From Candidatus Saccharimonadales bacterium (lineage in GTDB: Bacteria; Patescibacteriota; Saccharimonadia; Saccharimonadales; JAXHNE01): 47,572 nt of DNA. The stretch covers positions 1-47,572 of the forward strand of contig JBFIJL010000005.1 of the NCBI GenBank assembly GCA_041600755.1, read 5' to 3'. The position numbers were made by a program, and so were the translations under genes. The notes under the pieces are model-generated. The model did no database searches, was not told the origin of the DNA, and saw only the letters and a program-made list of their open reading frames with translations. Below are positions 7,404-39,226 of this stretch, piece by piece; positions within the stretch are counted from its first letter, which is position 1; each line of letters starts with the position of its first letter.

Positions 7404-10400
7404 ATGACTGACCGAGTGATTGCTCGAAATATTGTGCGACATTGGATGCGCTTAGCTTCCAGGGTATCTCTAACCACTTTGGGTAGGGGTTTTGTTTGTT
7501 TAGTTTTACTTTTGGTTCTTGTTTCTTATACGCGCGTATATACACCTACGCGCGTGTATGCTGCAACTGCCGATACTCTAAATTTTCAAGCTCGGGTTTA
7601 TGATTCAGCTGGCAATACTGCTGTGGACGGTAGCTACTCAATTTCGTTTAAGCTCTACGAGGCCGCATCTGGTGGTGCTAGTGTCTGGACCGAAACACAA
7701 GGGGCTGTGAATTTAAAAAATGGCTACTTTAGCGTAGAACTTGCATCTGTTACGCCATTTGGAGGCGGTATAGATTGGTCGCAGGAAAAGTGGCTAACAA
7801 TGAACATTAACGGCGATGGCGAAATGAATCCGCGACTCAAGCTCACCGCCACTCCGTACTCCTTGCTTTCCGAGCAGGCAAACACCTTAAGCGATGGCCT
7901 GGGTGGTGCACTCGCTGCCAACGAGTTAGTGCAGTTAACTCCGGGCACGCCACAGGCAGTTGCTAGCGCGCTTGCGGCACTTCGTATAAATCAAACTGGT
8001 GGTGGATTACTAGCTCAGCTCCAGGGCGACAGCATTGATTCATTCACTATTGCTAAGAATGGAGACGTAACTTCAACTGGAAGTGGAACTTTTGCTGGTG
8101 GAATTAAGATTGCCGGAATATCGGTTTTGACGAGTGGACGAGAATTGCAGAATATTACAGGGCTTACAATTGTGTCTGGAGGGGCAGGCATCACTGGCGG
8201 CATCGATAATAACAGCGGTGGAATTACAAATGCTGGTGCCATCAGTGGTATAACGGGTGTCACTTTCACGAGTGGTAATCTGAACCTCGCAAACGGCGGC
8301 ATTGTTAATGCAGGCAGCATTGCCGGGGCTACTACGATTGTAGCCAGCGACAACATCAATACAACCGGTGGATCTCTTTTGACGAATAGCATAGCCCGTA
8401 TTGCAAATAACGGAGCATTGCAAAATGTGACTGGCGACAATAGTAATGGCGTGAGTCTTAATGCGAACACAATTACTGGCGGAACGCTTTCTGCGGCACG
8501 AGGCGGTACGGGTGTTGACGGTTCAGCTGCGGCTAATGGACAGCTACTTATCGGAAATGGTTCTGGATATACTCTGTCCACGCTCACTGCTGGCAGCGGT
8601 GTGAATATCGTAAATAGCCCAGGAGCGATAGCGATAGCCGCAATACTTGGCGACAGTATTAGTACTGCCGAAATTGAGAACTCTGCCGTCACGACTGCCA
8701 AGATTGCAGACGGAAATGTGACTAACACTAAGCTTGCAAACAGTTCACTGACAGTAAATTCTGGAACTGGATTGAGCGGCGGTGGGCTAGTGAGTTTGGG
8801 TGATAGTATTACATTGAACCTGGACGATACTGCCGTGACGGCTGGTTCGTATGGTTCGACGAGCAGTGTTGCAACCTTCACAGTTGACGCGCAAGGCAGA
8901 TTAACTGCAGCCGGCACAACAACACTTGCCAATACCGCCCTACAAAACAGTAGCTTTAGTCTTATATACGGCAGTGCAAATTTGAGCGGTGATGCAAACG
9001 TCTCACTGGGCGGAACGCTTAACATTGATTTTAGCGACAATCCGTCATTTACGACACTCACGACTTCCGGGGCAATCACCGCGGCAACATCCACAAACAC
9101 AATCAATGGTCTTGTTATTAATAGCGGTGCGCTTAGTGGTGTAACTGGCATAGCGTTCACCAGTGGCAGTCTTAATCTTAATGGTGGTGATTTAACAAAT
9201 GGCGGAACTCTAACTGGCGTGACAATTAATGCAACCTCCGGATTTCAGCACAATGGCACCAATGGTCGTACTCTGAATTGTAGCTCAACTGAAGGAATTG
9301 AGGATGTCGAGATTCGTGGCGGAATAGTAATAACCTCAGCTTGTAGAGGTTTTGGTTTGTCGGATTCGGGACTAAAGGAAAATGTTACAAGTCTTAGTAG
9401 CTCTGTTCTCGATGACATTCGAGATGTAAATGTCGTTAATTTTGATTTTGACTGTACGAATTCAATTTTTGTTCAAAACGGAGGAACCTACTCATGCGAT
9501 AACAGTACACAGACAGGTGTAATCGCACAGCAACTTGAAGCTATATTCCCTGATCTTGTGTTCACGGGCGACGACGGCTATAAGCGTGTTCGCTACGAGG
9601 GCCTTGCAATGTATAACCTTAAGGCCGTTCAAGAGCTGGCAAGTCTTGTGGATTCTTCAGGCAATTACGACATAAATTCAGTTAGCACTAACGGCGTGTT
9701 GCGACTGTCGAGTACAGGCGAGCTAACAAACATTAATGGCCTGACAGTTTCTTCGGGCGGTGCTTCGATTACTGGCGGTATCGATAACAATACTGGTGGC
9801 ATTACAGAGGCTGGGGCGGTTAGTGGCGTAGCAGGTCTGACATTCGCGAGTGGAGCTTTGAATCTTAATAACGGCGGAGTTACCAACACCGGAAGTATTG
9901 CTGGCGCAACTAGCATAACTGCAAGCGATACGTTGAATCTAACTGCTGGAGTTTTGCAAACAAACAGCGTTACACGCCTAACCAATGCGGGCGCCCTACA
10001 GAACATTACAACAATTAGCGCTTCCGGCGCCATAGCTGCTGCAACCACCACCAACACTATTAATGGCCTTGTTATTAATAGTGGTGCGCTTAGTGGTGTA
10101 ACTGGATTTGCTCAAACTAGCGGCAACTTTACTCAATCTGGATCTGGAACCTTTGCAACCGGCACAGGCCAGAACACATTGAATGGGCTCACAAGTTTAA
10201 CTGGCAATACAACAATCACCGGCTCTAACACATTTACTGTTGGGTCTGGGCTGACGACATTAGGGGGCGGGCTTACGCTCACAGGAACTACAACAATTAA
10301 TCCAAGTGGAAGTGCAGCAGTTTCTATTGGTAATGCATCCACGCCACTGTCGATTGCATCATCGGGGCTTAGTGTTGCGACGAGCGGCAACTTAAAAACA

Positions 10401-13400
10401 AGTGGAACTATCATCTCTGAAAACATTAATTACAATGTCTTTGCTTCATCTGAAACGAATAATTCGTACGGCTACTTTAGGGCAGTTGAATCTGGAGATT
10501 CAGCAGGCCGATTTGAGATCGGAGGCTATGATATTTATGGCGCATCACAAGGAGGTCGGTCACTTGTCTTAAACCCATTAGGTGGGAATGTTGGCATAGG
10601 CGGCGATTTCACACCAGACGGACTGTTGTCTGTAGGGTCTACGAGCCAGTTTCAAGTAAATGCGAGTGGCCAGATAATTGCTTCAACCTCAGGTACTATT
10701 AATGGCTTATCTGTGACCAGTGGATCGCTGTCTGGAATTACGGGCTTCACGCAAACCAGTGGTAACTTTACTCAATCCGGTGCTGGAACATTCACAACCG
10801 GCACAGGGACGAATACATTAAACGGCACAACTAGCTTGACTGGCAACACATCAGTCACAGGATCGAATACTCTTACTGTTGGAACTGGACTAACAACCCT
10901 CGGTGGCGGGGCGTCAATCACCGGAGGAATCAACAATAACAGTGGTGGAATTACTAGCGCCGGAGGAATTAGCGGAATTGCAGGGATGACCTTTACTAGT
11001 GGTAATCTGAACCTTGCAAACGGTGGCATTACTAACACGGGCTCAATTGCAGGTGCTACAACAATAACAGGAAGTGGGATTATAAACACCACAGGAGGTG
11101 CATTGCACACAAATAGCATTGCACGCATTGCTAATAACGGCGCACTTCAGAACGTTTACGGAGACGTATCGAACGATGTTTTTCTTAATGCAAACACCAT
11201 AACGGGAGGAACCTTGCTTGTCGAGCGAGGCGGAACCGGGACGGGGACTTTGACGACACGTGGAGTAGTTTACGGAAACGGGACGGGAGCACTGCAAGCT
11301 ACTGCCGCAGGTACTGGTGGGCAGGTGTTGATTGCAAATGCGAGCGGAGTTCCAACATTCATGACACTATCCGGAGATGTGACTGTTAATAATTCTGGAC
11401 TTACTTCGATTGGAGCAAATGCAGTTGCATTGGGCACCGATACGACAGGAAATTATGTGGCAACAATATCCGTTGGAGATGGTCTGACTGTCAGTGGGGT
11501 TGGCTCAGAAAATTCAACAGCAAGCATTGGTATTGATGTAAGCACAACTGGCTCAACTAGTACTACAAGCAGCAACTCCGGACTAGAAACAACTGCAACA
11601 GGGCTTCGGCTTATAAGTGGCTGTAGCAATGGTCAGTTATTGGAGTGGCAAGGTACGACAACAGGGTGGGAGTGTAACAATGACAATACCTTCTCTGATT
11701 CGAACTTAAAGCAGGGAGTGTCTACCCACAGCTCTGTGCTCGATTCCTTCAAAAACATAAGAATTGTCGACTATACATACAAGTGCAATGATCCACTGTT
11801 TGCACATCTTACGCTTAGCTGTGATGATCAAACTGGCGTAATTGCTCAGGAGCTGGCGCTTGTGTTTCCTGAGCTTGTAGAAATTAAATCCAGTGGACTC
11901 TTTGGAGTTGACTATAAAAAGCTTCAAACATATACCATTCGTGCAGTTAGTGAAATCGCTGCATATATAGAAGCCGATGGCGATGCGAAGCTGTCCAATA
12001 TAAGTACCGGGGGCACACAAAGATTAAGTAGTTCGGGTGTGCTCCAAAATATTACGGGATTAACGGTTGTATCCGGAGGAGCGTCAATAACGGGAACAAC
12101 TTCAATTAATGTCAATAGTGCAAGCGCTACGAATATTAATACAGGAGCCAGCACTGGTTCGATAAATATCGGGGGAGGGCTCTCGCCACTTGTCATTAAC
12201 TCCACAAACTTTGATGTTTCATCTGGTGGCGCATTGAGTGGAATTTCAACGATTAGTGCAAGTAATAACATAAGCACAACACTCGGTGGACTACAGACAG
12301 CCGGGACCACTAGGCTTACTAACGGAGGCGCACTTCAAAACATTACTGGGCTGACCATAGTGTCTGGTGGTGCGTCAATAGTAGGTTCGACATCAGTTTC
12401 TGGTGCATTCACTGCCTCAGGAGGTACGGTAAATGTAAACGTGAACGGAATTACGACAGGCACAAACATAAATACGGGTACGAGTACAGGGGCAGTTGCG
12501 ATTGGTGGCGGACTTGCCACCTTCTCACTGAATTCAACTGCTTTTGACGTCTCATCAACTGGTGCGCTAAGCGGTATTTCTACAATAAATGCAAGTAATG
12601 ATATTACGACAAGCGGAGATGTGAACGTCACTGGACTTGGCGTATACCAAATAAACGGAATAAGCGGCGAGACTGTTACCTGTAGTGGCAACAACTATCT
12701 AGCGAACATTCAACTAATCGGCGGAATTATCACTAGCTATGGTAGTTGTCGTGGCGTTGGCTTGTCGGATATACGTCTTAAAGAAAACGTCGTATCACTC
12801 GATAGCTCAGTGCTTGACAAGATTAAAAATGTGAACACAGTTACTTTTGACTATACATGTGATGATGAGTATTTTACTCAAAACAACATCGGTTGTGACG
12901 ATGAGCATCAGACTGGTGTTATTGCACAAGAGCTTGCACAAATTTTCCCTGATCTTGTTGAACAGGATGAGTATGGTTACTTTAGAGTAAAGTATGATGC
13001 GTTAAGTGTATACAACCTTAAGGCCACTTCAGAGCTTGCCAAGACTATCGACAGTCAAGGCAATGTAACGAGTAACACTGTAGCAACAGGTGGCACAATT
13101 CGTTTGAATGCGGGCGGTGAGTTGGATAATATTACGGGCCTAAGGCTAGTTGGCGGCGGTGCAAGCATTGTTGGCGGCATCAACAACAACGGCGGTGGCG
13201 TTACCGAAGCTGGTGTCATTGATGGTGTCACTACTTTAACTGCGCAGTCAGTCAAGATCAGGAGCAATAGTTTCGATAACTTATTGGAACTTACAAAGGA
13301 TAATCAAGGAGTGTTTACCGTGTTTGAATCTGGCGCACTTCAGCTTAGACTGACAGCCGATGAAGCGTTTATTGTTAAGAACCAGGCCGGCGATGACTTC

Positions 13401-13988
13401 TTTAGCGTAAATACTGAAGGCGGTTTGGTGCGCATTGGTTCTGAGTTGAATCAAGCAGGCGTGTTGTTGGTTTTGGATAATGTAGCACTTGATGGCGACC
13501 CAGTTGGCGTGAACGGTGGACAGTATTACAATACAAATCTGCAGAAGTTCCGCTGTTTTGAAAATAGCGTTTGGGTGAACTGTATCGCTTCGCTTGGTTC
13601 AGAATACAACATCGCATCTGTACCATTTAGCTGGAGGCAGCCAGTGGTCAACCAGGAAATACCAACCGAACAGCAGGTCTGGACTGATTTATCAACAGCC
13701 AACGAGTTTAGGATGGTGGCCAATGTTCGGGATACAGGCGCCATTAATGCCGCCTGTAGGCTGGAATATACAACCGAGGGTAGGGGTTACTGGCGATCGC
13801 TTTCTGACGACGATGACTATCTACTGCCCGTTTCTGCTTCCGGCAGTATTCGATCAGACTGGCGGAAGATTTCGGTTCCTGCGCAACAGGATGCATTGAT
13901 TAGAGTTGTTTGTCGTAACGGAGACAGTACAAACGATAGTAATGGCACGGTGCTGAAGATTGACTCAATAAGGATGCAGGTTCGATAG
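7404..13988 (+). CDS. Giant secreted fibre/adhesin (2194 aa) with three internal Peptidase_S74 intramolecular-chaperone domains
   Basis: Signal/TM N-terminus, then an 'LNFQARV...F.LY....GG..VWTETQ...GYFSVEL...EMNPRLKLTATPY' domain and G/T/S/N-rich repeats. Three copies of SDxxLK...TGVIAQ.L...FP.LV...V.Y..L..Y...A..E. Confidence 0.85.
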   Translation: MTDRVIARNIVRHWMRLASRVSLTTLGRGFVCLVLLLVLVSYTRVYTPTRVYAATADTLNFQARVYDSAGNTAVDGSYSISFKLYEAASGGASVWTETQGAVNLKNGYFSVELASVTPFGGGIDWSQEKWLTMNINGDGEMNPRLKLTATPYSLLSEQANTLSDGLGGALAANELVQLTPGTPQAVASALAALRINQTGGGLLAQLQGDSIDSFTIAKNGDVTSTGSGTFAGGIKIAGISVLTSGRELQNITGLTIVSGGAGITGGIDNNSGGITNAGAISGITGVTFTSGNLNLANGGIVNAGSIAGATTIVASDNINTTGGSLLTNSIARIANNGALQNVTGDNSNGVSLNANTITGGTLSAARGGTGVDGSAAANGQLLIGNGSGYTLSTLTAGSGVNIVNSPGAIAIAAILGDSISTAEIENSAVTTAKIADGNVTNTKLANSSLTVNSGTGLSGGGLVSLGDSITLNLDDTAVTAGSYGSTSSVATFTVDAQGRLTAAGTTTLANTALQNSSFSLIYGSANLSGDANVSLGGTLNIDFSDNPSFTTLTTSGAITAATSTNTINGLVINSGALSGVTGIAFTSGSLNLNGGDLTNGGTLTGVTINATSGFQHNGTNGRTLNCSSTEGIEDVEIRGGIVITSACRGFGLSDSGLKENVTSLSSSVLDDIRDVNVVNFDFDCTNSIFVQNGGTYSCDNSTQTGVIAQQLEAIFPDLVFTGDDGYKRVRYEGLAMYNLKAVQELASLVDSSGNYDINSVSTNGVLRLSSTGELTNINGLTVSSGGASITGGIDNNTGGITEAGAVSGVAGLTFASGALNLNNGGVTNTGSIAGATSITASDTLNLTAGVLQTNSVTRLTNAGALQNITTISASGAIAAATTTNTINGLVINSGALSGVTGFAQTSGNFTQSGSGTFATGTGQNTLNGLTSLTGNTTITGSNTFTVGSGLTTLGGGLTLTGTTTINPSGSAAVSIGNASTPLSIASSGLSVATSGNLKTSGTIISENINYNVFASSETNNSYGYFRAVESGDSAGRFEIGGYDIYGASQGGRSLVLNPLGGNVGIGGDFTPDGLLSVGSTSQFQVNASGQIIASTSGTINGLSVTSGSLSGITGFTQTSGNFTQSGAGTFTTGTGTNTLNGTTSLTGNTSVTGSNTLTVGTGLTTLGGGASITGGINNNSGGITSAGGISGIAGMTFTSGNLNLANGGITNTGSIAGATTITGSGIINTTGGALHTNSIARIANNGALQNVYGDVSNDVFLNANTITGGTLLVERGGTGTGTLTTRGVVYGNGTGALQATAAGTGGQVLIANASGVPTFMTLSGDVTVNNSGLTSIGANAVALGTDTTGNYVATISVGDGLTVSGVGSENSTASIGIDVSTTGSTSTTSSNSGLETTATGLRLISGCSNGQLLEWQGTTTGWECNNDNTFSDSNLKQGVSTHSSVLDSFKNIRIVDYTYKCNDPLFAHLTLSCDDQTGVIAQELALVFPELVEIKSSGLFGVDYKKLQTYTIRAVSEIAAYIEADGDAKLSNISTGGTQRLSSSGVLQNITGLTVVSGGASITGTTSINVNSASATNINTGASTGSINIGGGLSPLVINSTNFDVSSGGALSGISTISASNNISTTLGGLQTAGTTRLTNGGALQNITGLTIVSGGASIVGSTSVSGAFTASGGTVNVNVNGITTGTNINTGTSTGAVAIGGGLATFSLNSTAFDVSSTGALSGISTINASNDITTSGDVNVTGLGVYQINGISGETVTCSGNNYLANIQLIGGIITSYGSCRGVGLSDIRLKENVVSLDSSVLDKIKNVNTVTFDYTCDDEYFTQNNIGCDDEHQTGVIAQELAQIFPDLVEQDEYGYFRVKYDALSVYNLKATSELAKTIDSQGNVTSNTVATGGTIRLNAGGELDNITGLRLVGGGASIVGGINNNGGGVTEAGVIDGVTTLTAQSVKIRSNSFDNLLELTKDNQGVFTVFESGALQLRLTADEAFIVKNQAGDDFFSVNTEGGLVRIGSELNQAGVLLVLDNVALDGDPVGVNGGQYYNTNLQKFRCFENSVWVNCIASLGSEYNIASVPFSWRQPVVNQEIPTEQQVWTDLSTANEFRMVANVRDTGAINAACRLEYTTEGRGYWRSLSDDDDYLLPVSASGSIRSDWRKISVPAQQDALIRVVCRNGDSTNDSNGTVLKIDSIRMQVR
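8178..11240 (+). repeat. Intragenic duplicated modules: 8178-8513 ~ 10905-11240 (112 aa); 9063-9149 ~ 10020-10106; 10107-10271 ~ 10746-10910 (55 aa)
   Basis: Ungapped peptide repeats, e.g. TFTSGNLNLANGGI and TNSIARIANNGALQNV twice, NTINGLVINSGALSGVTG twice, QTSGNFTQSG twice. DNA identity is still visible (agtggtaatctgaacct at 8271 and 10998). Confidence 0.85.
9360..9644 (+). other. Peptidase_S74 / intramolecular chaperone domain, copy 1 (S653-D-S-G-L-K658)
   Basis: SDSGLKENV...TGVIAQQLEAIFPDLV...VRYEGLAMYNLKAVQEL. Confidence 0.8.
11694..11963 (+). other. Peptidase_S74 domain, copy 2 (S1431-D-S-N-L-K1436)
   Basis: SDSNLKQGV...TGVIAQELALVFPELV...VDYKKLQTYTIRAVSEI. Confidence 0.8.
12765..13043 (+). 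other. Peptidase_S74 domain, copy 3 (S1788-D-I-R-L-K1793)
   Basis: SDIRLKENV...TGVIAQELAQIFPDLV...VKYDALSVYNLKATSEL. Confidence 0.85.
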
Positions 13989-31466: not shown

Positions 31467-32993
31467 ATGGCTACATTAAAAGAACTGCGCGATGAGCGCT
31501 TACGGAAACTCGAAGATTTAAAAAACCTTGGCGTTAAGCTTTACCCAGCGGGTGTAAGCCGGACACATAAACTTCAATCTATTCATGATGACTTTGAGTC
31601 ACTTGAAAATCAAGAAGTGACTGTAGTTGGACGCGTGAAGTCAATTCGAAAATTTGGAAAACTAGCTTTTGTTGTGATTCGCGATGAAACAGCTGACGTC
31701 CAATTGTTTATCAAAAAAGGCGACTCTGCCGACGAAGCAAATCGTGAAAATGCAGAACTTCTTATGCCATCAGAAATAAGCTTGCTTGATAGCGGTGATT
31801 TTGTGGAGTGTTTAGGAGAGGTTATAAAGACACAGACAGGCGAGATATCTGTTCATTGCCGTAAGTTGCGCCTGCTGACTAAAAGTTTACGCCCACTTCC
31901 AACCGACCAAGATGGCTTTACCGACAAAGAGCAGCGTTTGCGCCGACGCTATGTTGATATGAACGTCAATACCGATGTCCGTGAACGATTTATGCGTCGA
32001 AGTGCATTTTGGCAGGCAACGAGAGATTTTTTGAATTCCGAAGGATTTACTGAGATCAATATTCCTGTACTAGAACACACTACTGGTGGAGCCGATGCAA
32101 ATCCTTTCGTGACGCATATGGATGCGCTTGACCAAGATTTCTACTTACGTATTAGTCATGAACTACCCCTCAAGCGACTGCTCGGTGCCGGATTTGAAAA
32201 AGTCTACGATATTGGCCCACGCTTCCGTAATGAAAATTACAGCGACGAACACTTACCAGAGCATACTGCCATGGAATGGTACTGGGCATATGCAAACTGG
32301 GAAGATGGAATGAAACTCACTCAGCGCATGGTGCGTTCAATTGCTGACAAAACCTGGGGAACAAGACAGTTCACCACACCAAGCGGCATGTCTATCGACC
32401 TTGGATCGGACGATCAGGATTGGCCTCGCATAAGCTTCGTTGATCTATTGCAAGAAAAATACGGCATTGATGTGCATACGTGTACTCTTGAGCAAGCCGT
32501 AGAGCAGCTCAAAAAAGCTGGCGGCGAAGTTGAGAAAATCGAAAACCGTGCCCGCGTAATTGATAAATTGTGGAAACTGGAGCGAGTAAAGATTGCTGGT
32601 CCAGCGTTCTTGGTTGATGTTCCTGAATTTTTACAACCACTAGCCAAGACGCAGGCTGGAGACGCTCGATTGAGTGAGCAGTTTAACCTGATGCTTGGGG
32701 GCACCGAAGCTTGTAAGGCATACTCAGAGCTCAATGATCCGATTGATCAATACGGCAGATTCGTCACTCAGCAACAGATGCGTGAAGCTGGCGACGATGA
32801 AGCCATGATGATGGATATAGACTTTATCGAAATGCTTGAGTACGGCATGCCTCCAGCCTGTGGCTACGGCAATAGCGAACGATTATTCTGGCTACTTGAG
32901 GGCGTTACCGCACGCGAAGGTGTGCCGTTCCCTCAACTCAGGCACGAAATTGACGACCTCACCAAATCAATCTATCCAGATATGCCTGTCTAG
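31467..32993 (+). CDS. lysS: Lysine--tRNA ligase (class II)
   Basis: OB fold, RRRYVD, GGADANPF.TH, YLRISHEL.LKRL, FRNE, YSELNDP, LEYGMPP. Confidence 0.97.
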   Translation: MATLKELRDERLRKLEDLKNLGVKLYPAGVSRTHKLQSIHDDFESLENQEVTVVGRVKSIRKFGKLAFVVIRDETADVQLFIKKGDSADEANRENAELLMPSEISLLDSGDFVECLGEVIKTQTGEISVHCRKLRLLTKSLRPLPTDQDGFTDKEQRLRRRYVDMNVNTDVRERFMRRSAFWQATRDFLNSEGFTEINIPVLEHTTGGADANPFVTHMDALDQDFYLRISHELPLKRLLGAGFEKVYDIGPRFRNENYSDEHLPEHTAMEWYWAYANWEDGMKLTQRMVRSIADKTWGTRQFTTPSGMSIDLGSDDQDWPRISFVDLLQEKYGIDVHTCTLEQAVEQLKKAGGEVEKIENRARVIDKLWKLERVKIAGPAFLVDVPEFLQPLAKTQAGDARLSEQFNLMLGGTEACKAYSELNDPIDQYGRFVTQQQMREAGDDEAMMMDIDFIEMLEYGMPPACGYGNSERLFWLLEGVTAREGVPFPQLRHEIDDLTKSIYPDMPV

Positions 32994-33011
32994 TGGTATA
33001 GTACGTGCATT

Positions 33012-33989
33012 ATGGCTACAAAGACACCTACACCCAAGAAGAAGACAGCAACTAAGGCTACGGCTACTAAGAAGACTGTAAAATCAGCAAAAAAGGCTGC
33101 GCCGAAGAAAGTGGCAGCTGCAAAAGCAAAAACCGTTAAAAAATCTACTACTAAGAAAGCTACACCAAAAAAGACTGTCAGAAAGGCAGCAATCTCAAAG
33201 GCTAAAGTGGTGTCAACTGTAAAAGTTAGTTCACCCCTAATGAATATGCGTAAGTTTAATATTTTTAGTGCACTCCTGCTTGCAGTTGGAGCTGGCTTGA
33301 TTGTGGCTTATGGGAATGAGCTACTTACTAGCTTTACTTCAAGCTACCTCGCAGAAAATGCACTTACTGAATCTGGTGAATTGTTGCCAGCTGTGCGTGA
33401 ACTATTTAGTATAAATCTAAGCTACTTAATTGCTGGCGTGCTAGGAGCGGCTGCAGTATGGCGTGCACTATTAGCTACGTCACTACGTGAACGTTACGAA
33501 GCGCAGGTAGACCGCAAACTTACAAGTTTGAATTGGATTGAATTGGGAGTATTTGGTCCATGGATCGTCGCTATAATTGCGTCACTCACAGGTGTTCGCG
33601 ATATTATGACTTTGCTGCTTATTGGTGGAGTGGTGTCCGTAACTGCAGTACTTGGCTACTTGAGCGACAGATACAACATGCTTACAAATCGATCAGTGCT
33701 CAAGAATAAGATTGCAATCGACGCAGTCATGCTGCCTTGGTTTGTCATTGCTGTATCGCTAACCCACACGTACATTTATGGAATGATCAACTTGTCATCT
33801 GCCGTCTATGGACTTATTGCGCTCGGATTGTTGGTTTATGTTGCACTTGCGTTAGCACACAAAAAGCAGATTGCTGCGACTGGAAGATTTGCAGAATTCA
33901 TCTTTGGTGAAAAGGTCATAGCTACAATGCATGTGTTGCTGCTTGCGGTGATTGCTGCAATACCGTTTCTATCGAGTTTAACTTCTTAA
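33012..33989 (+). CDS. Heliorhodopsin-like 7-TM protein lacking the Schiff-base Lys, with N-terminal Lys/Ala/Thr-rich (histone H1-like) tail
   Basis: Colinear by-eye match to heliorhodopsin motifs: KFN, RY....., NWIEL (RWxEY), IIA.LTG..D...L, LGYLSDRY, PW, VYG, G.F....GE. The SLVAK-equivalent reads HVLLL. Confidence 0.72.
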   Translation: MATKTPTPKKKTATKATATKKTVKSAKKAAPKKVAAAKAKTVKKSTTKKATPKKTVRKAAISKAKVVSTVKVSSPLMNMRKFNIFSALLLAVGAGLIVAYGNELLTSFTSSYLAENALTESGELLPAVRELFSINLSYLIAGVLGAAAVWRALLATSLRERYEAQVDRKLTSLNWIELGVFGPWIVAIIASLTGVRDIMTLLLIGGVVSVTAVLGYLSDRYNMLTNRSVLKNKIAIDAVMLPWFVIAVSLTHTYIYGMINLSSAVYGLIALGLLVYVALALAHKKQIAATGRFAEFIFGEKVIATMHVLLLAVIAAIPFLSSLTS

Positions 33990-34035: not shown

Positions 34036-36045
34036 ATGACTAAAAAGAAGATAAGTCAAAGTTCCGCGCGCCCTAAAGCCCATAGAAAAAAGCACCACAA
34101 ACCATTCAGAAATAGGCACGTTGTCTTGCTCGTACTTGGGCTTGTCATTGTGGCGATTTCTTTGTATAAACTTGGCGCCTACCAAACACAGACACACTTT
34201 AGGCAGGATGTTGTGGACCAAGCCACAGATGAGTACGCTCCGATTGAGCTGAGCTCGGATTACGGATTTACTACTTTGTTTGATGATAGGGTTTTTGATG
34301 TCGAGTATCTAGACGAGGGCAGTGCACATGTCGCGACGAAGTCCCGCCACCTAGATAAAACGGTGATGCAGCTTACGCTTACGGCTAGGCCAGAGGACGT
34401 CTATCCACGAGACGCAGCTTTGCGAATTCAAATTTTAGTTGATACTGAGCTGCCAATCGCCGATGAAAGTTTTTTGGTTCAAGAGGTAGAAAGCAAACAA
34501 GTTCTTGTTGGCGGCTCAAATGCATCGCATCGCATCTTTTCGTTGACACCTCAAACCGGCACAATTAAAAGTTTGACCTACGTTCACCAGTGGCTTATAG
34601 AAGGCGATGAGCATGTAGTAGAGATCCGAGCTGAAGGATTGAGCGAGAAAGCTCTGCCGGCTGTTGCAGGCAAGGTTATTGCAGACTTTTCATTCCACGG
34701 ATCAGTGCTTGGGGCGAAAACCGGAAGCTTTGCTGCTGGTATTTTGTCATCAACAGCCCTTGCGGCGTCGCCCCAAAATGATTATGTGATTGATGCTGTT
34801 TCACCGGCGGTGGTGAAGCTGTATCACATTACTTGTGGGAAGTTGATCGTGTTTGGTGAGCCTTTAACAAGTGAATCTTGTCAGGTGACAACAGGTAGTG
34901 GATTTTTTGTGTCATCGGATGGCTACATTGCCACTAATGGGCATGTTGTAGTTAACCAGCCGGAAGATATATTTGTTAAAGTTTTGTTGGCTGATCCTGG
35001 CTCGTTGGCAACTTTCTTGAATGGTGCTGGACTGACGGGATCTGAAATTTCAGGTATTTCTAAAAACCCAGTTCTTCTGGCATCAATAATTTCAAAAGTC
35101 TACGATTTGCCAGATGCAGCTATTCAGCTTGAGAACGAAACTCATAGTTATTTCGCGGCACTTGGCCAGGAGCCACTTCGCATTGAATCTATTGAAGACG
35201 CACAAAACATCCGGAATTTTCAGGGTCGAAATAGTCTGCAGCCCGTACAGCTTATTGCCAAGAATTATGCTAGCAAAGACGTGTACAGCGTCTCGGCAGG
35301 TGAAGGCTTTAGCGCAAGTGATGTCGCATTGCTCAAGGTTGATATAGATGATACGCCGTTCATTCGACTGTTTGATAAATCTGTGACACAGAACATGGCG
35401 ATTAGTATTGTTGGCTTTCCAGGTGACGCAGAGAACTTCTTGATTGATAAATCAGAACTCGCAACAACCATAACGAATGGATCGATAAGTGCAATTCGCG
35501 GCTCGTCTGGCAGCAGCGACTACACTCTCTATCAATCAGATGCCGATGCCTCACAAGGTAACAGTGGCGGTCCAGTGTTAACTGCTGCCGGACAGGCGAT
35601 AGGGTTGCTGACGTATCGCTATCAAAGCAGTGAACAAACAGATGCAGCCAAGAGCTATATCCGCGATATCAATGATCTTGCTAAGTTGGCGCGAGTAAAT
35701 AATGTAGTTTTTAAATTTGATGGAGTGACGCAGTCTTCATGGGAGACTGGGCTTGAGCTTTATGCAACAAATCGTTATTCAAAAGCACTGGTTGAGTTTC
35801 GGAAAGTTGCTGACTCATATCCGTCACATCGGCTTGTAGGTAGTTATATTCTGGATGCCGAAAAGGCCGTTGCCCAAGGTCGTGACGTGCAAGATACGCC
35901 AGCATTGCTGGTGGTTGGGGCGGTGATTGGAATGTTTGGGGCCGTTTCCGCAGTTGTCTTGATTGCGAGGCAGCACGGAAATCATCAGTTGTTTAAGTTG
36001 ACACACGTTAAGTCTACAGATAAACAGCCACATCCTGCTGTATAA
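34036..36045 (+). CDS. Membrane-anchored trypsin-like (S1) serine protease without PDZ
   Basis: TGSGFFVSSDGYIATNGHVV, DVALLK, SQGNSGGP; TM helices near both termini. Confidence 0.9.
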   Translation: MTKKKISQSSARPKAHRKKHHKPFRNRHVVLLVLGLVIVAISLYKLGAYQTQTHFRQDVVDQATDEYAPIELSSDYGFTTLFDDRVFDVEYLDEGSAHVATKSRHLDKTVMQLTLTARPEDVYPRDAALRIQILVDTELPIADESFLVQEVESKQVLVGGSNASHRIFSLTPQTGTIKSLTYVHQWLIEGDEHVVEIRAEGLSEKALPAVAGKVIADFSFHGSVLGAKTGSFAAGILSSTALAASPQNDYVIDAVSPAVVKLYHITCGKLIVFGEPLTSESCQVTTGSGFFVSSDGYIATNGHVVVNQPEDIFVKVLLADPGSLATFLNGAGLTGSEISGISKNPVLLASIISKVYDLPDAAIQLENETHSYFAALGQEPLRIESIEDAQNIRNFQGRNSLQPVQLIAKNYASKDVYSVSAGEGFSASDVALLKVDIDDTPFIRLFDKSVTQNMAISIVGFPGDAENFLIDKSELATTITNGSISAIRGSSGSSDYTLYQSDADASQGNSGGPVLTAAGQAIGLLTYRYQSSEQTDAAKSYIRDINDLAKLARVNNVVFKFDGVTQSSWETGLELYATNRYSKALVEFRKVADSYPSHRLVGSYILDAEKAVAQGRDVQDTPALLVVGAVIGMFGAVSAVVLIARQHGNHQLFKLTHVKSTDKQPHPAV

Positions 36046-36052
36046 TATAAAC

Positions 36053-36739
36053 ATGCGATTACACAGATTCTTTGTAGGCGATGAACGAAAGCTCACACAT
36101 GATTTTTGGATTAATGATTCCGCTTTGATTCATCAGTGGCAAAAAGTTTTCCGACTAGCAGCAGGCGCAGAAGTTGTGTTGTTTGATGGCAAAGATCATG
36201 ATCGCCTGTATCAGATTGCCAAGTTCGAACCCGGTGGCGTTCATCTTAAGCACGTGACCGATTTTGAACGAGTAGTGCCACAGAAGCATGTGTATTTGTT
36301 GTGGTCACTGCTCAAAAAAGATAAAAATGACTGGATTATTCAAAAAGCTACAGAGCTCGGTGTCAGTCATTTTTGGCCGGTTATCACAAAGCGCTCTGAG
36401 CAGCCACGGTTTGACATGGAGCGTGCTAAGAAAATTGCAATAGAGGCTGCAGAGCAGTGTGGACGGAGCGACATTCCAACTATTAGGGAGCCAGAATTAC
36501 TGCAAACTGCAATTGATAATTTTAGCAGTATTGGTGAGCTGTTTGTCTGTCAGCAGGGGCACGAGAATCAAACAATTGAAGCTGAAACGATTGGAATTTT
36601 AGTCGGCCCAGAAGGCGGTTGGGCAGGAAATGAACTTGAACAGTTTAAAACTAGTGAAATCAAGCACCTAGGTCTTGGTGAGTTCACGCTTCGTGCCGAA
36701 ACCGCCGCGATTGTAGCAAGTACTGTAGTGTTACAATAG
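36053..36739 (+). CDS. rsmE: 16S rRNA m3U1498 methyltransferase
   Basis: KVFRL, QKATELGV, EAAEQCGR, VGPEGGW, LG...LRAETA. Confidence 0.96.
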   Translation: MRLHRFFVGDERKLTHDFWINDSALIHQWQKVFRLAAGAEVVLFDGKDHDRLYQIAKFEPGGVHLKHVTDFERVVPQKHVYLLWSLLKKDKNDWIIQKATELGVSHFWPVITKRSEQPRFDMERAKKIAIEAAEQCGRSDIPTIREPELLQTAIDNFSSIGELFVCQQGHENQTIEAETIGILVGPEGGWAGNELEQFKTSEIKHLGLGEFTLRAETAAIVASTVVLQ

Positions 36740-36745
36740 GTCTCT

Positions 36746-37531
36746 ATGGGTAATTATTGGAAAGAACGTAACAAGCCATATCAGCCTGGGCAGGTCGATA
36801 AATTCAAGGTTTCTCGCAGTAAAATTGAGCTATTCATGCAATGCCCACGCTGTTTTTGGTTGGATGCCCGCCTAAAAATAAAACGACCAGGTAGCCCGCC
36901 ATTTAACATCAATAAGACAATCGACGAGTTGTTTAAAAAAGAGTTTGATGTTTACCGAGAAAAAGCAGAGCCGCATCCACTTATGACAAAGTTCAAAGTT
37001 GAGGGGATTCCTTTTGCTCATAAAGATATGGACACCTGGCGCGAAAACTTTGTTGGAGTATTTACTCATCACGCGCCAACAAATCTGCATGTATTCGGTG
37101 CAGTTGATGATGTCTGGGTTAACACTGTAGGTGAACTGATGGTGGTTGATTATAAGGCTACAGCTAAAGACAAGCCCGTGACGCAGCTTGGGGCTCCTGG
37201 TGGCTGGCAGGACATGTATCGCCGTCAGATGGAAGTTTATCAGTGGCTACTGAGGGCGAATGGCCACAAGGTTAGCGATACTGGTTATTTTGTGTATGCA
37301 ACGGGTACTCAGGATCGTGATGGGTTTCATGACCAGGTAGATTTTGAGACCTTCGTGTTCCCGCATAATGGTAATTCTGACTGGGTAGAACCAACACTGC
37401 TTGAGATGAAAAAGACACTGGATGGTGATATGCCAGCAGTTGGCACAGCCGCAATGGGTGGTCCGTGCGAACACTGTGAATACGCCAAAGCCCGCACGAC
37501 CTTAACACTTCAAGCCCTTAAATCTCGTTAG
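36746..37531 (+). CDS. Stand-alone PD-(D/E)xK nuclease (Cas4/AddB-like)
   Basis: S.SKI....CPRC, GAVDD, VVDYKA, QMEVYQWLL, C-terminal CEHC. Confidence 0.88.
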   Translation: MGNYWKERNKPYQPGQVDKFKVSRSKIELFMQCPRCFWLDARLKIKRPGSPPFNINKTIDELFKKEFDVYREKAEPHPLMTKFKVEGIPFAHKDMDTWRENFVGVFTHHAPTNLHVFGAVDDVWVNTVGELMVVDYKATAKDKPVTQLGAPGGWQDMYRRQMEVYQWLLRANGHKVSDTGYFVYATGTQDRDGFHDQVDFETFVFPHNGNSDWVEPTLLEMKKTLDGDMPAVGTAAMGGPCEHCEYAKARTTLTLQALKSR

Positions 37532-38860: not shown

Positions 38861-39226
38861 ATGATCAAAACAGAACAAATTGGCGTACATACAACAATCA
38901 CTGAGGAGCTTAAGAAGTATATCGATAAAAAAATCGGCAAGCTTGAAAAATATCTACCAAAAGATGCCCGTGAATCAGCTCATGCCGAAGTGTTTATTAA
39001 AGAGTCCAAGATAAAGACCAAGGTGCAGCACACCGCAGAAGTTGTATTGAAGTTAAAACACGAAACCATAACTGCCAAAGAAACCACCGTGAACCCATTT
39101 GCAGCGATAGATATAGTAGAAGCCAAGATGAAGAACCAGCTCAAAAGGTACAAAGACAAGCACGGTCACAGTAAATTCCACCACCGCGTTATATCAAAAA
39201 TGAAACGCCGCACCCCAGAACTCTAA
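38861..39226 (+). CDS. hpf: Ribosome hibernation factor (HPF/RaiA, short form)
   Basis: T..LKKYI.KKI.KL.KY, AE..L......AKE....FAAID....K...QL.RYK. Confidence 0.92.
   Translation: MIKTEQIGVHTTITEELKKYIDKKIGKLEKYLPKDARESAHAEVFIKESKIKTKVQHTAEVVLKLKHETITAKETTVNPFAAIDIVEAKMKNQLKRYKDKHGHSKFHHRVISKMKRRTPEL

Follow-up and report, generated by a model that had tools for sequence, protein, structure and literature searches.

A heliorhodopsin-like protein with leucine at the Schiff-base lysine position and a polycationic N-terminal tail in Candidatus Saccharimonadales

Introduction

What heliorhodopsins (HeRs) do physiologically has been an open question ever since they were discovered. Their function is still called largely unknown, with scattered reports of partner proteins such as photolyase and glutamine synthetase (PMC9385722; PMC10308929). 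Here, we describe a HeR-like gene at positions 33012–33989 (+ strand; ATG start, 325 amino acids and a stop codon) of a 47,572-nucleotide stretch of DNA from a Candidatus Saccharimonadales bacterium (contig JBFIJL010000005.1 of assembly GCA_041600755.1), the whole of which is referred to as the window. The gene was identified from the list of open reading frames (ORFs) and from its match to the Pfam family PF18761. Its product carries a leucine in place of the Schiff-base lysine and is preceded by a polycationic tail of about 74 residues. The heliorhodopsin family is known already, as are retinal-less rhodopsins in type 1; what is new is that the retinal-less state occurs in type 3, that it recurs in a single positional orthologue, and that a polycationic tail is present.

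Among type-1 rhodopsins, Lys-less or pocket-less forms have been described as Rh-noK, flotillin-associated rhodopsins and haloarchaeal opsins (PMC10308929, 10.1101/2025.04.29.651185). HeRs with N-terminal additions are also on record, namely MORN-HeR, zinc-ribbon-HeR and the variants labelled ntv1–ntv10, and these additions have been read as output or partner-recruiting modules (PMC8612252). The lysine itself has served as an entry requirement in three surveys: an SxxxK motif was required in PMC8612252 and both the Arg of transmembrane helix (TM) 3 and the Lys by Chazan et al. (10.1101/2021.02.16.431466), while in PMC9166423 the TM7 motif was checked and the Lys required. Two of 13 uncharacterised cluster representatives are given as lacking the Lys in PMC13739731. 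We found no description in the literature of a Lys-less heliorhodopsin clade or of such a tail; the supplements of PMC8612252, PMC9166423 and PMC13739731 may list such sequences.

Fold, topology and predicted dimer

In a Pfam profile search, the protein matches PF18761 (Heliorhodopsin) over residues 79–307 with an E value of 4.6e-25 and 88.8 bits against a cut-off of 26.7. The score for the NCBIfam HeR equivalog NF038020 (83.1 bits) stays under the cut-off of 100, and the protein is thus not assigned to the equivalog. TaHeR and 48C12, the heliorhodopsins in the PDB, are matched by phmmer at E values of 1.3e-13 to 3.2e-11. The first-pass annotation, made from the letters alone, had paired four segments with 48C12 by eye (VYGLI with VYGII among them), and phmmer against entries 6uh3 and 6su3 aligns all four in the same way. 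No match to PF01036 (Bac_rhodopsin) is obtained for the protein, which therefore does not qualify as a type-1 rhodopsin homologue.

An AlphaFold2 model was built from 128 family sequences. The mean predicted local distance difference test (pLDDT) score is 86.6 and the predicted template-modelling score (pTM) is 0.77, with most of the core above 90. Residues 75–325 (33234–33986, + strand) are modelled as seven helices, with the β-hairpin 105–115/124–135 of extracellular loop 1 (ECL1) between helices 1 and 2 and a short B–C helix (159–167) between helices 2 and 3. In a Foldseek search against the PDB, all ten matches with E ≤ 0.001 are heliorhodopsin entries (target TM score 0.82–0.89, root-mean-square deviation 1.6–2.8 Å). 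The best is TaHeR (6is6/7u55; TM score 0.89, deviation 1.6–1.9 Å), while type-1 rhodopsins reach a TM score of at most 0.67 with E values of 2.4e-3 or worse. By sequence and by predicted fold, the protein is thus a heliorhodopsin homologue.

The topology was judged from Lys/Arg counts read off the sequence on the AlphaFold2 model. The predicted inner loops (156–171, 219–233 and 283–295) hold 11 such residues and the tail another 25, against two in the predicted outer loops (101–135, 193–197 and 258–262) and the C-terminus together. The N-terminal tail should therefore lie on the cytoplasmic side, where the first-pass annotation had placed it.

Dimers of heliorhodopsins have already been solved structurally. 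In a prediction with two copies of the core, the interface score ipSAE is 0.78 compared with 0.00 for the best control. Helices 4 and 5 form the predicted interface together with the ECL1 hairpin; at least 92% of the contacts are shared between runs, and the partner has a pLDDT of at least 84. In a calibration on solved structures, 20 of 30 proteins known as pairs attained this ipSAE mark, compared with one of 23 known as single chains. The passing score may nevertheless stem from the model's memory of the solved HeR dimers or from mere likeness to them.

Retinal-site residues

Residues were counted along HMMER alignments (phmmer against PDB chains), 48C12 and TaHeR numbers being the chain position plus an offset of 2 or 6; the offset is anchored on the counterion Glu-107/Glu-108 (PMC9385722). 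The Schiff-base lysine, Lys241 of 48C12, is replaced by Leu311 (codon CTT, 33942–33944, + strand). This assignment is given alike by the HMMER alignments and by the column of the MAFFT alignment, and the codon recurs in the contig of a second sample. TM7 reads HVLLL here, so that the SxxxK motif is absent. The counterion is retained as Glu177 (Glu107 in 48C12; codon GAA, 33540–33542, + strand), while the TM3 arginine Arg104 is replaced by Asn174 (codon AAT, 33531–33533, + strand), which is Asn in seven of ten clade rows. The acidic partner of Arg104, Glu149, is conservatively changed to Asp219. Both conserved histidines are lost, His23 in TM1 becoming Leu90 and His80 in TM2 becoming Arg151, and the polar TM7 residue Ser237 is changed to His307. 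Each of the changes that had been read by eye (Leu311, the lost TM3 Arg and histidines, the retained counterion) is borne out by these alignments. Three findings that had been named in advance as contrary to a lysine-less heliorhodopsin with a cytoplasmic tail, namely no HeR match, a lysine in TM7 and an outside N-terminus, did not occur.

The replacements extend beyond the Schiff base. In TM5, the glycine of the retinal-uptake opening (Gly171 in TaHeR, aligned to 6is6) is replaced by Val239 (33726–33728, + strand). A G171W mutation blocks retinal uptake in TaHeR (PMC13739731). Over 22 canonical rows this glycine has a conservation of at least 95%, and the clade of the window protein has Leu in eight rows and Val in two. 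The same threshold of at least 95%, applied to 22 canonical heliorhodopsins of the same bacterial group, selects 52 columns; the window protein keeps 21 of these, and several canonical aromatic positions are aliphatic. The sole Lys near helix 7 is Lys301 at the cytoplasmic 'GEK' position, which is Lys or Arg in canonical members too. Taken on the aligned residues, a remodelled retinal cavity is supported.

A protein that has lost its lysine could still carry a chromophore, either retinal held non-covalently or another pigment such as a carotenoid made by an own crtI-type pathway, and sense light or the redox state through it. The retained Glu177 and Asp219 fit such a role, and a carotenoid-binding site has been reported in 91.3% of HeRs (10.1101/2025.11.27.691015). 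The genome also offers possible pigments. A polyprenyl synthase adjoins a gene of the squalene/phytoene-synthase family (G000:C4:78444-79226, L076), and a phytoene desaturase of the crtI family is encoded elsewhere (G000:C1:173783-175249, L077; 464.5 bits against a cut-off of 238, and 601.6 against 640 for the CrtID equivalog). Against this, the membrane-embedded part of TM7 is free of any lysine, 31 of the 52 canonical columns are changed with the uptake glycine among them, and no lycopene cyclase was found in the genome. On balance we consider a non-covalent chromophore improbable. The search for the retinal-forming β-carotene dioxygenase family, in which the control gave no signal anywhere, carries no inference on retinal synthesis. 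An acyclic carotenoid pathway is unusual for a Saccharibacteria-type genome.

The N-terminal tail

Residues 1–74 (33012–33233, + strand) comprise 24 Lys, 15 Ala, 14 Thr, eight Val, six Ser, four Pro and one Arg, without any Asp or Glu, which extends the acid-free Lys-rich stretch initially read as residues 1–71. TPKK occurs twice and APKK once. The segment is modelled as coil with pLDDT values of 56–62. A Pfam scan of the tail alone returned no family, hence no globular DNA-binding domain is seen there. Among the real Lys/Arg-rich, acid-free segments of its own genome, the tail is the most extreme one, its score being tied by one unannotated Arg-rich frame. Second among the basic tails is a Lys/Ala-rich C-terminal extension of about 55 residues on ribosomal protein bS20 (G000:C4:67632-68051, L072), and short basic N-termini of membrane proteins also rank high.

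The anatomy of the tail was studied on 131 family tails, with starts taken from the gene caller and motif z values computed against shuffles. Their median length is 61 residues and their median net charge +17. The composition is 25.4% Lys, 19.1% Thr, 16.3% Ala, 11.2% Ser, 7.3% Val, 4.0% Pro and 3.9% Arg, with 2.3% Asp and Glu together and 0.7% aromatic residues. The usual start is MATTKK, the start MATTKK...KAKTKT is conserved and AKTKT is frequent (z = 7.8). Lysine pairs abound and triplets are avoided: KKK is observed 28 times against 126.8 in shuffled tails (z = −7.9) and KKKK not once against 31.6 expected, while KKP is enriched (z = 12.2). The avoidance of KKK and KKKK may have to do with ribosome stalling on poly-Lys, with protease sites or with charge spacing.

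In 37 syntenic or divergent loci, the in-frame open stretch upstream of TM1 has a median of 65 codons, compared with six to seven in the other two frames. The frame upstream of TM1 is thus conserved open, and the tail is therefore argued to be translated; the comparison argues for a translated tail under constraint. A mis-called start as the origin of the tail was also considered. Shine–Dalgarno motifs are silent on the candidate starts Met1, Met77 and Met79, the frame comparison supports translation of the tail, and a mis-called start is disfavoured.

A translated tail need not be an effector. It could be a topogenic or biogenesis device, acting as a positive-inside signal, as an anchor to anionic lipids or as an A-rich 5' coding leader, with the function residing in the core, for example as a membrane organiser. 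HeR topology requires an inside N-terminus, other membrane proteins of the genome also start with basic stretches before TM1, and the use of Shine–Dalgarno motifs is weak in the source genome (97 of 297 long ORFs). However, 13 canonical HeRs of the same order insert without a tail, and 60–100 residues far exceed what topology needs. The ordered grammar (KK pairs, avoidance of KKK and KKKK, KKP) and the conserved start also point to a constrained peptide. We regard a purely topogenic tail as unlikely.

Family survey, tree and synteny

A word-indexed search retrieved four relatives with 40–50% identity, all with a Lys-rich tail and none with a helix-7 lysine. An exhaustive search of cluster representatives gave 540 proteins with E ≤ 0.001, of which 270 reached E ≤ 1e-10. 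The order was assigned as Saccharimonadales from the NCBI names of cluster members, and 48 of its 61 genomes have a PF18761 match. The scores are bimodal, with one group at about 275–330 bits (proteins of about 250–290 amino acids) and another at 20–160 bits (mostly 300–350 amino acids). Absence calls in these genome searches are subject to the completeness of the genomes and to a first pass that is loose.

The MAFFT alignment holds 152 database proteins and 50 derived from genomes; left out of the genome rows were the second canonical match of genome G004, a 65-residue fragment from G056 and a sub-threshold match from G051. In the Schiff-base column, 113 of the 201 scored rows have Lys and 88 another residue (Leu 17, Val 14, Ala 12, Thr 11, Arg 9, Gln 9 and others, Tyr, Ser and Asn among them), one further row having a gap. 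With this column removed and two proteins with a core of less than 220 residues (P0076 and P0147) left out, a FastTree tree of 200 rows requires a minimum of 27 changes between the Lys and non-Lys states. This tree is approximate and midpoint-rooted for drawing only, and gives a minimum number of changes rather than their direction or the number of losses.

The window protein belongs to a clade of 13 rows (SH-like support 100) in which every row has Leu or Tyr at the Schiff-base place, and the inner 11 rows have Asn or His in place of the TM3 Arg. The replacement residues are themselves conserved, with Leu311, Leu310 and Ile287 each present in nine of ten rows and Asp219 in eight of ten, and nine aligned members have 28 invariant columns in common. 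Because the clade is uniformly Lys-less with conserved replacement residues, it is not, judged by its sequences, decaying. The contrary explanation, a functionless relic left behind after the loss of retinal access, could draw on the many residues found at the Schiff-base site and on the at least 27 changes of state, which look like relaxed constraint, and on the 13 of 61 genomes without a HeR match. It is countered by the intact reading frame in all 13 clade rows, by the conserved replacements, by a core pLDDT above 90 obtained from the family alignment and by the retention of the gene in very small genomes. We judge decay to be highly improbable. A pseudogene or an assembly error was likewise rejected, as the frame is intact, the contig from a second sample is identical and the clade is conserved. 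That contig, from the same study, is identical over 32948–33948 including the Leu311 codon, so the leucine did not arise from an assembly error in a single sample.

One clade member of the same genus, P0007, is 50% identical to the window protein, has a 74-residue polycationic tail and is named 'hypothetical protein [Candidatus Saccharibacteria bacterium]' at the NCBI. P0014, which has both the lysine and a tail, is named 'heliorhodopsin HeR [Candidatus Saccharimonadales bacterium]'. Since three surveys required the lysine and a member of the clade is named as a hypothetical protein, Lys-less diversity (88 of 201 rows here) is therefore under-counted.

The relation between tail and lysine was followed by synteny in 51 loci (50 relatives and the window) from 48 genomes of the order, using flanks of 2.5–6 kb and counting as a tail at least 30 residues with at least eight Lys or Arg. 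The 150 database representatives were ranked by a tail-bearing query, which biases their tail frequency upward, and the unbiased figures are those of the 51 genome loci. For the genome-derived rows, ORFs were called from the first start codon that follows a stop, which may overestimate the N-terminal length. In 34 loci the gene occupies a conserved slot, greA–lysS–[HeR]–(protease)–rsmE–PD-(D/E)XK nuclease–serS; 18 of these genes keep the Lys, 16 are Lys-less and 26 are tailed. Another 13 loci lie elsewhere, with no marker within 6 kb, and all of these are Lys-bearing with the motif HHRWESK and none is tailed. The position of the remaining four (L016, L025, L026 and L031; short contigs or 1.5 kb flanks) is unassigned, two having the Lys, two lacking it and one being tailed. 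There are thus two positional lineages of HeR genes in the order, and the tail belongs to the one linked to lysS.

Within the slot, 14 orthologues have tail and Lys, 12 a tail without Lys, four the Lys without a tail and four neither. These counts do not uphold the proposal of the first-pass annotation, a scaffold repurposed for tail presentation, which ties the loss of the Lys to the tail. Six slot genes have the full canonical motif HHRWESK and three of these are tailed, one of them with 97 residues containing 33 Lys/Arg. Since fully canonical orthologues are also tailed, the tail is the older trait of the lysS-linked lineage and the loss of the Lys is later and repeated.

Of the 18 genomes that have a Lys-less copy, a Lys-bearing HeR is present in only three. 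This bears on a further possibility, that the Lys-less protein is a regulatory subunit which heterodimerises with a photoactive canonical HeR and adds its tail to the photoreceptor, as has been proposed for the type-1 Rh-noK. Two of the three other genomes of the window's genus (G001 and G003) do carry a canonical HeR together with a Lys-less copy, and the predicted dimer interface is the canonical one. In the window's own genome, which is 97.7% complete, this gene is nevertheless the only HeR-family match, and 15 of the 18 genomes are without a Lys-bearing partner, so that we hold such a subunit to be very unlikely here. PF01036 is also without a match in this genome, which is a weak blank since its control gave no signal anywhere.

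In a sample of 301 genomes from the phylum (the tally includes G211, flagged as unpublished), 84 have a match and only six full-length matches fall below 170 bits. Four of these six come from the window's order, which contributes 15 of the 301 genomes, and two from one other family. Two matches outside the order (G224:C1:359725-360564 and G301:C12:13927-14778) are split in two within one frame of 309–328 amino acids, which suggests an insert between profile positions of about 141 and 149. The HeR matches of G257 and G321 contain an internal TAG.

Possible function

We are highly confident that the window protein is a retinal-free protein of HeR fold under selection, its retention in a 0.81 Mb genome being counted as a sign of the latter. 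It has no covalent retinal binding and is therefore very probably not a photoreceptor. The interpretation that we prefer, and to which we give an even chance, is that of a retinal-free, probably dimeric scaffold whose disordered, polycationic tails are displayed to a polyanion in the cytoplasm. Taken by itself, the proposal that the tail functions by binding a polyanion is tentative, and that its target would be nucleic acid specifically is doubtful.

The following sequence of events would account for the observations. A heliorhodopsin lineage became fixed between lysS and rsmE across one Saccharibacteria order and, presumably while still a canonical retinal protein, gained an acid-free cytoplasmic tail of 30–100 residues rich in Lys, Thr, Ala and Ser. 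In the clade of the window protein, the Schiff-base Lys, the TM3 Arg, both His residues and the uptake Gly would then have been replaced, and the replacements later conserved. The predicted heliorhodopsin-type dimer, formed through TM4, TM5 and the ECL1 hairpin, would serve as a seven-helix membrane anchor and perhaps as a sensor of a signal other than light. Its output would be the electrostatic binding of a cytoplasmic polyanion by two tails of charge +25 each. A first guess for this polyanion is nucleic acid, either the nucleoid or ribosomes and RNA, and a second is the anionic inner leaflet of the membrane.

Several observations weigh against this interpretation. The tail had been called 'histone-H1-like', which holds for its composition and fails for its motifs: the DNA-binding motif [ST]PKK is not enriched in the 131 tails (eight observed against 5.9 in shuffled tails, z = 0.9), and no Pfam domain is matched. 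None of the three candidate starts has a Shine–Dalgarno motif, and it is comparative sequence evidence only that argues for Met1. Basic N-termini before TM1 also occur in this genome on PBP1, an Ig-domain protein and the neighbouring protease; lipid binding or an exaggerated positive-inside signal could likewise account for the tail. The retained counterion Glu and Asp219 could mean that a polar cavity still binds something, and the carotenoid genes may leave room for a non-covalent pigment. The 131 tail-bearing rows among the 152 from the database are a figure inflated by the tail-bearing query, and eight of the 34 slot orthologues have a short stub instead of a tail. The 13 of 61 genomes of the order that are without a HeR match make the function dispensable.

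A bolder version would place the tail, and not light sensing, at the centre of the lineage. Anchored in the membrane, the polycationic HeR linked to lysS would tether or compact nucleic acid there, under the control of light in the ancestral retinal-bearing forms and constitutively, independent of light, in the Lys-less ones, the window protein among them. The setting given for tethering is that the HU/IHF family PF00216 has no match in the 61 genomes of the order, its control being detected in nine of 14 reference genomes; this profile is short (90 positions) and the first pass was loose, so that the absence of HU is tentative. We consider this version a long shot. If true, it would be the first general output mechanism for heliorhodopsins.

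Across dozens of families, one positional orthologue occurs in both a Lys-bearing and a Lys-less form, in genomes of 0.5–1.3 Mb that retain few dispensable genes. This amounts to a natural experiment, in which any activity left to the Lys-less forms is one that the scaffold performs independently of light, and heliorhodopsins probably have a light-independent job. The conserved polycationic tail is a concrete and testable candidate for the output.

Genomic context

The source genome comprises 807,510 bases in six contigs, and the sequencing runs that contain the window DNA carry the label marine metagenome. In the window, lysS (lysyl-tRNA synthetase, identified by Pfam; 31467–32993, + strand) is the upstream marker of the conserved slot and adjoins the HeR gene in relatives; 18 nucleotides separate its stop from the start of the HeR-like ORF. 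After a gap of 46 nucleotides follows a membrane-anchored trypsin-like protease (Pfam Trypsin_2; 34036–36045, + strand), a protein of 669 amino acids whose N-terminus is basic and which has a single TM helix at either end. It adjoins the HeR gene within the window's genus (L040, L046 and L047), and in one other genome (L034) a protease-matching ORF lies about 1.4 kb downstream of the HeR gene. The rsmE-like RNA methyltransferase and the PD-(D/E)XK nuclease (Pfam; 36053–37531, + strand) are the downstream markers of the slot by synteny. A ribosome hibernation factor of the S30AE family (38861–39226) ends the co-directional row greA–lysS–HeR–protease–rsmE–nuclease–serS–hpf, and all listed genes of more than 150 amino acids between 24713 and 47572 are on the + strand. 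An ORF of 2194 amino acids occupies 7404–13988 (+ strand).

Comparison with known systems

The tails of histone H1 and of actinobacterial HU (HupB) are disordered, acid-free and rich in Lys, Ala, Pro, Thr and Ser. The tail described here resembles them in composition, but it is attached to a seven-helix membrane protein, is without a globular DNA-binding domain and is not enriched in [ST]PKK.

MORN-HeR and zinc-ribbon-HeR likewise carry a cytoplasmic N-terminal extension on a HeR core. As described in PMC8612252, however, these extensions fold into domains and belong to Lys-bearing HeRs of Firmicutes and Thermoplasmatales, whereas here a disordered low-complexity polycation is found in Saccharimonadales. 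Of the ten N-terminal extension variants in that paper, its text describes the zinc ribbon only, and ntv2–ntv10 could include the present tail.

The retinal-less type-1 rhodopsins are alike in that a rhodopsin scaffold has outlived the loss of its Lys or pocket, in streamlined genomes and with a function that is not known. They have the opposite topology and, according to the sources, have always been found in genomes that also encode a working proton pump, whereas the present protein is of type 3 and 15 of its 18 carrier genomes lack a Lys-bearing HeR. No polycationic tail is described for them in the available parts of PMC10308929 and 10.1101/2025.04.29.651185.

The canonical heliorhodopsins 48C12 and TaHeR are homologues of the window protein. 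In common with these, the window protein has the seven-helix fold with the ECL1 hairpin and the B–C helix, the inside N-terminus, the counterion Glu and the predicted TM4/TM5/ECL1 dimer. It differs from them in having replaced the Schiff-base Lys, the TM3 Arg, the TM1 and TM2 His residues and the uptake Gly, and in presenting a polycationic tail.

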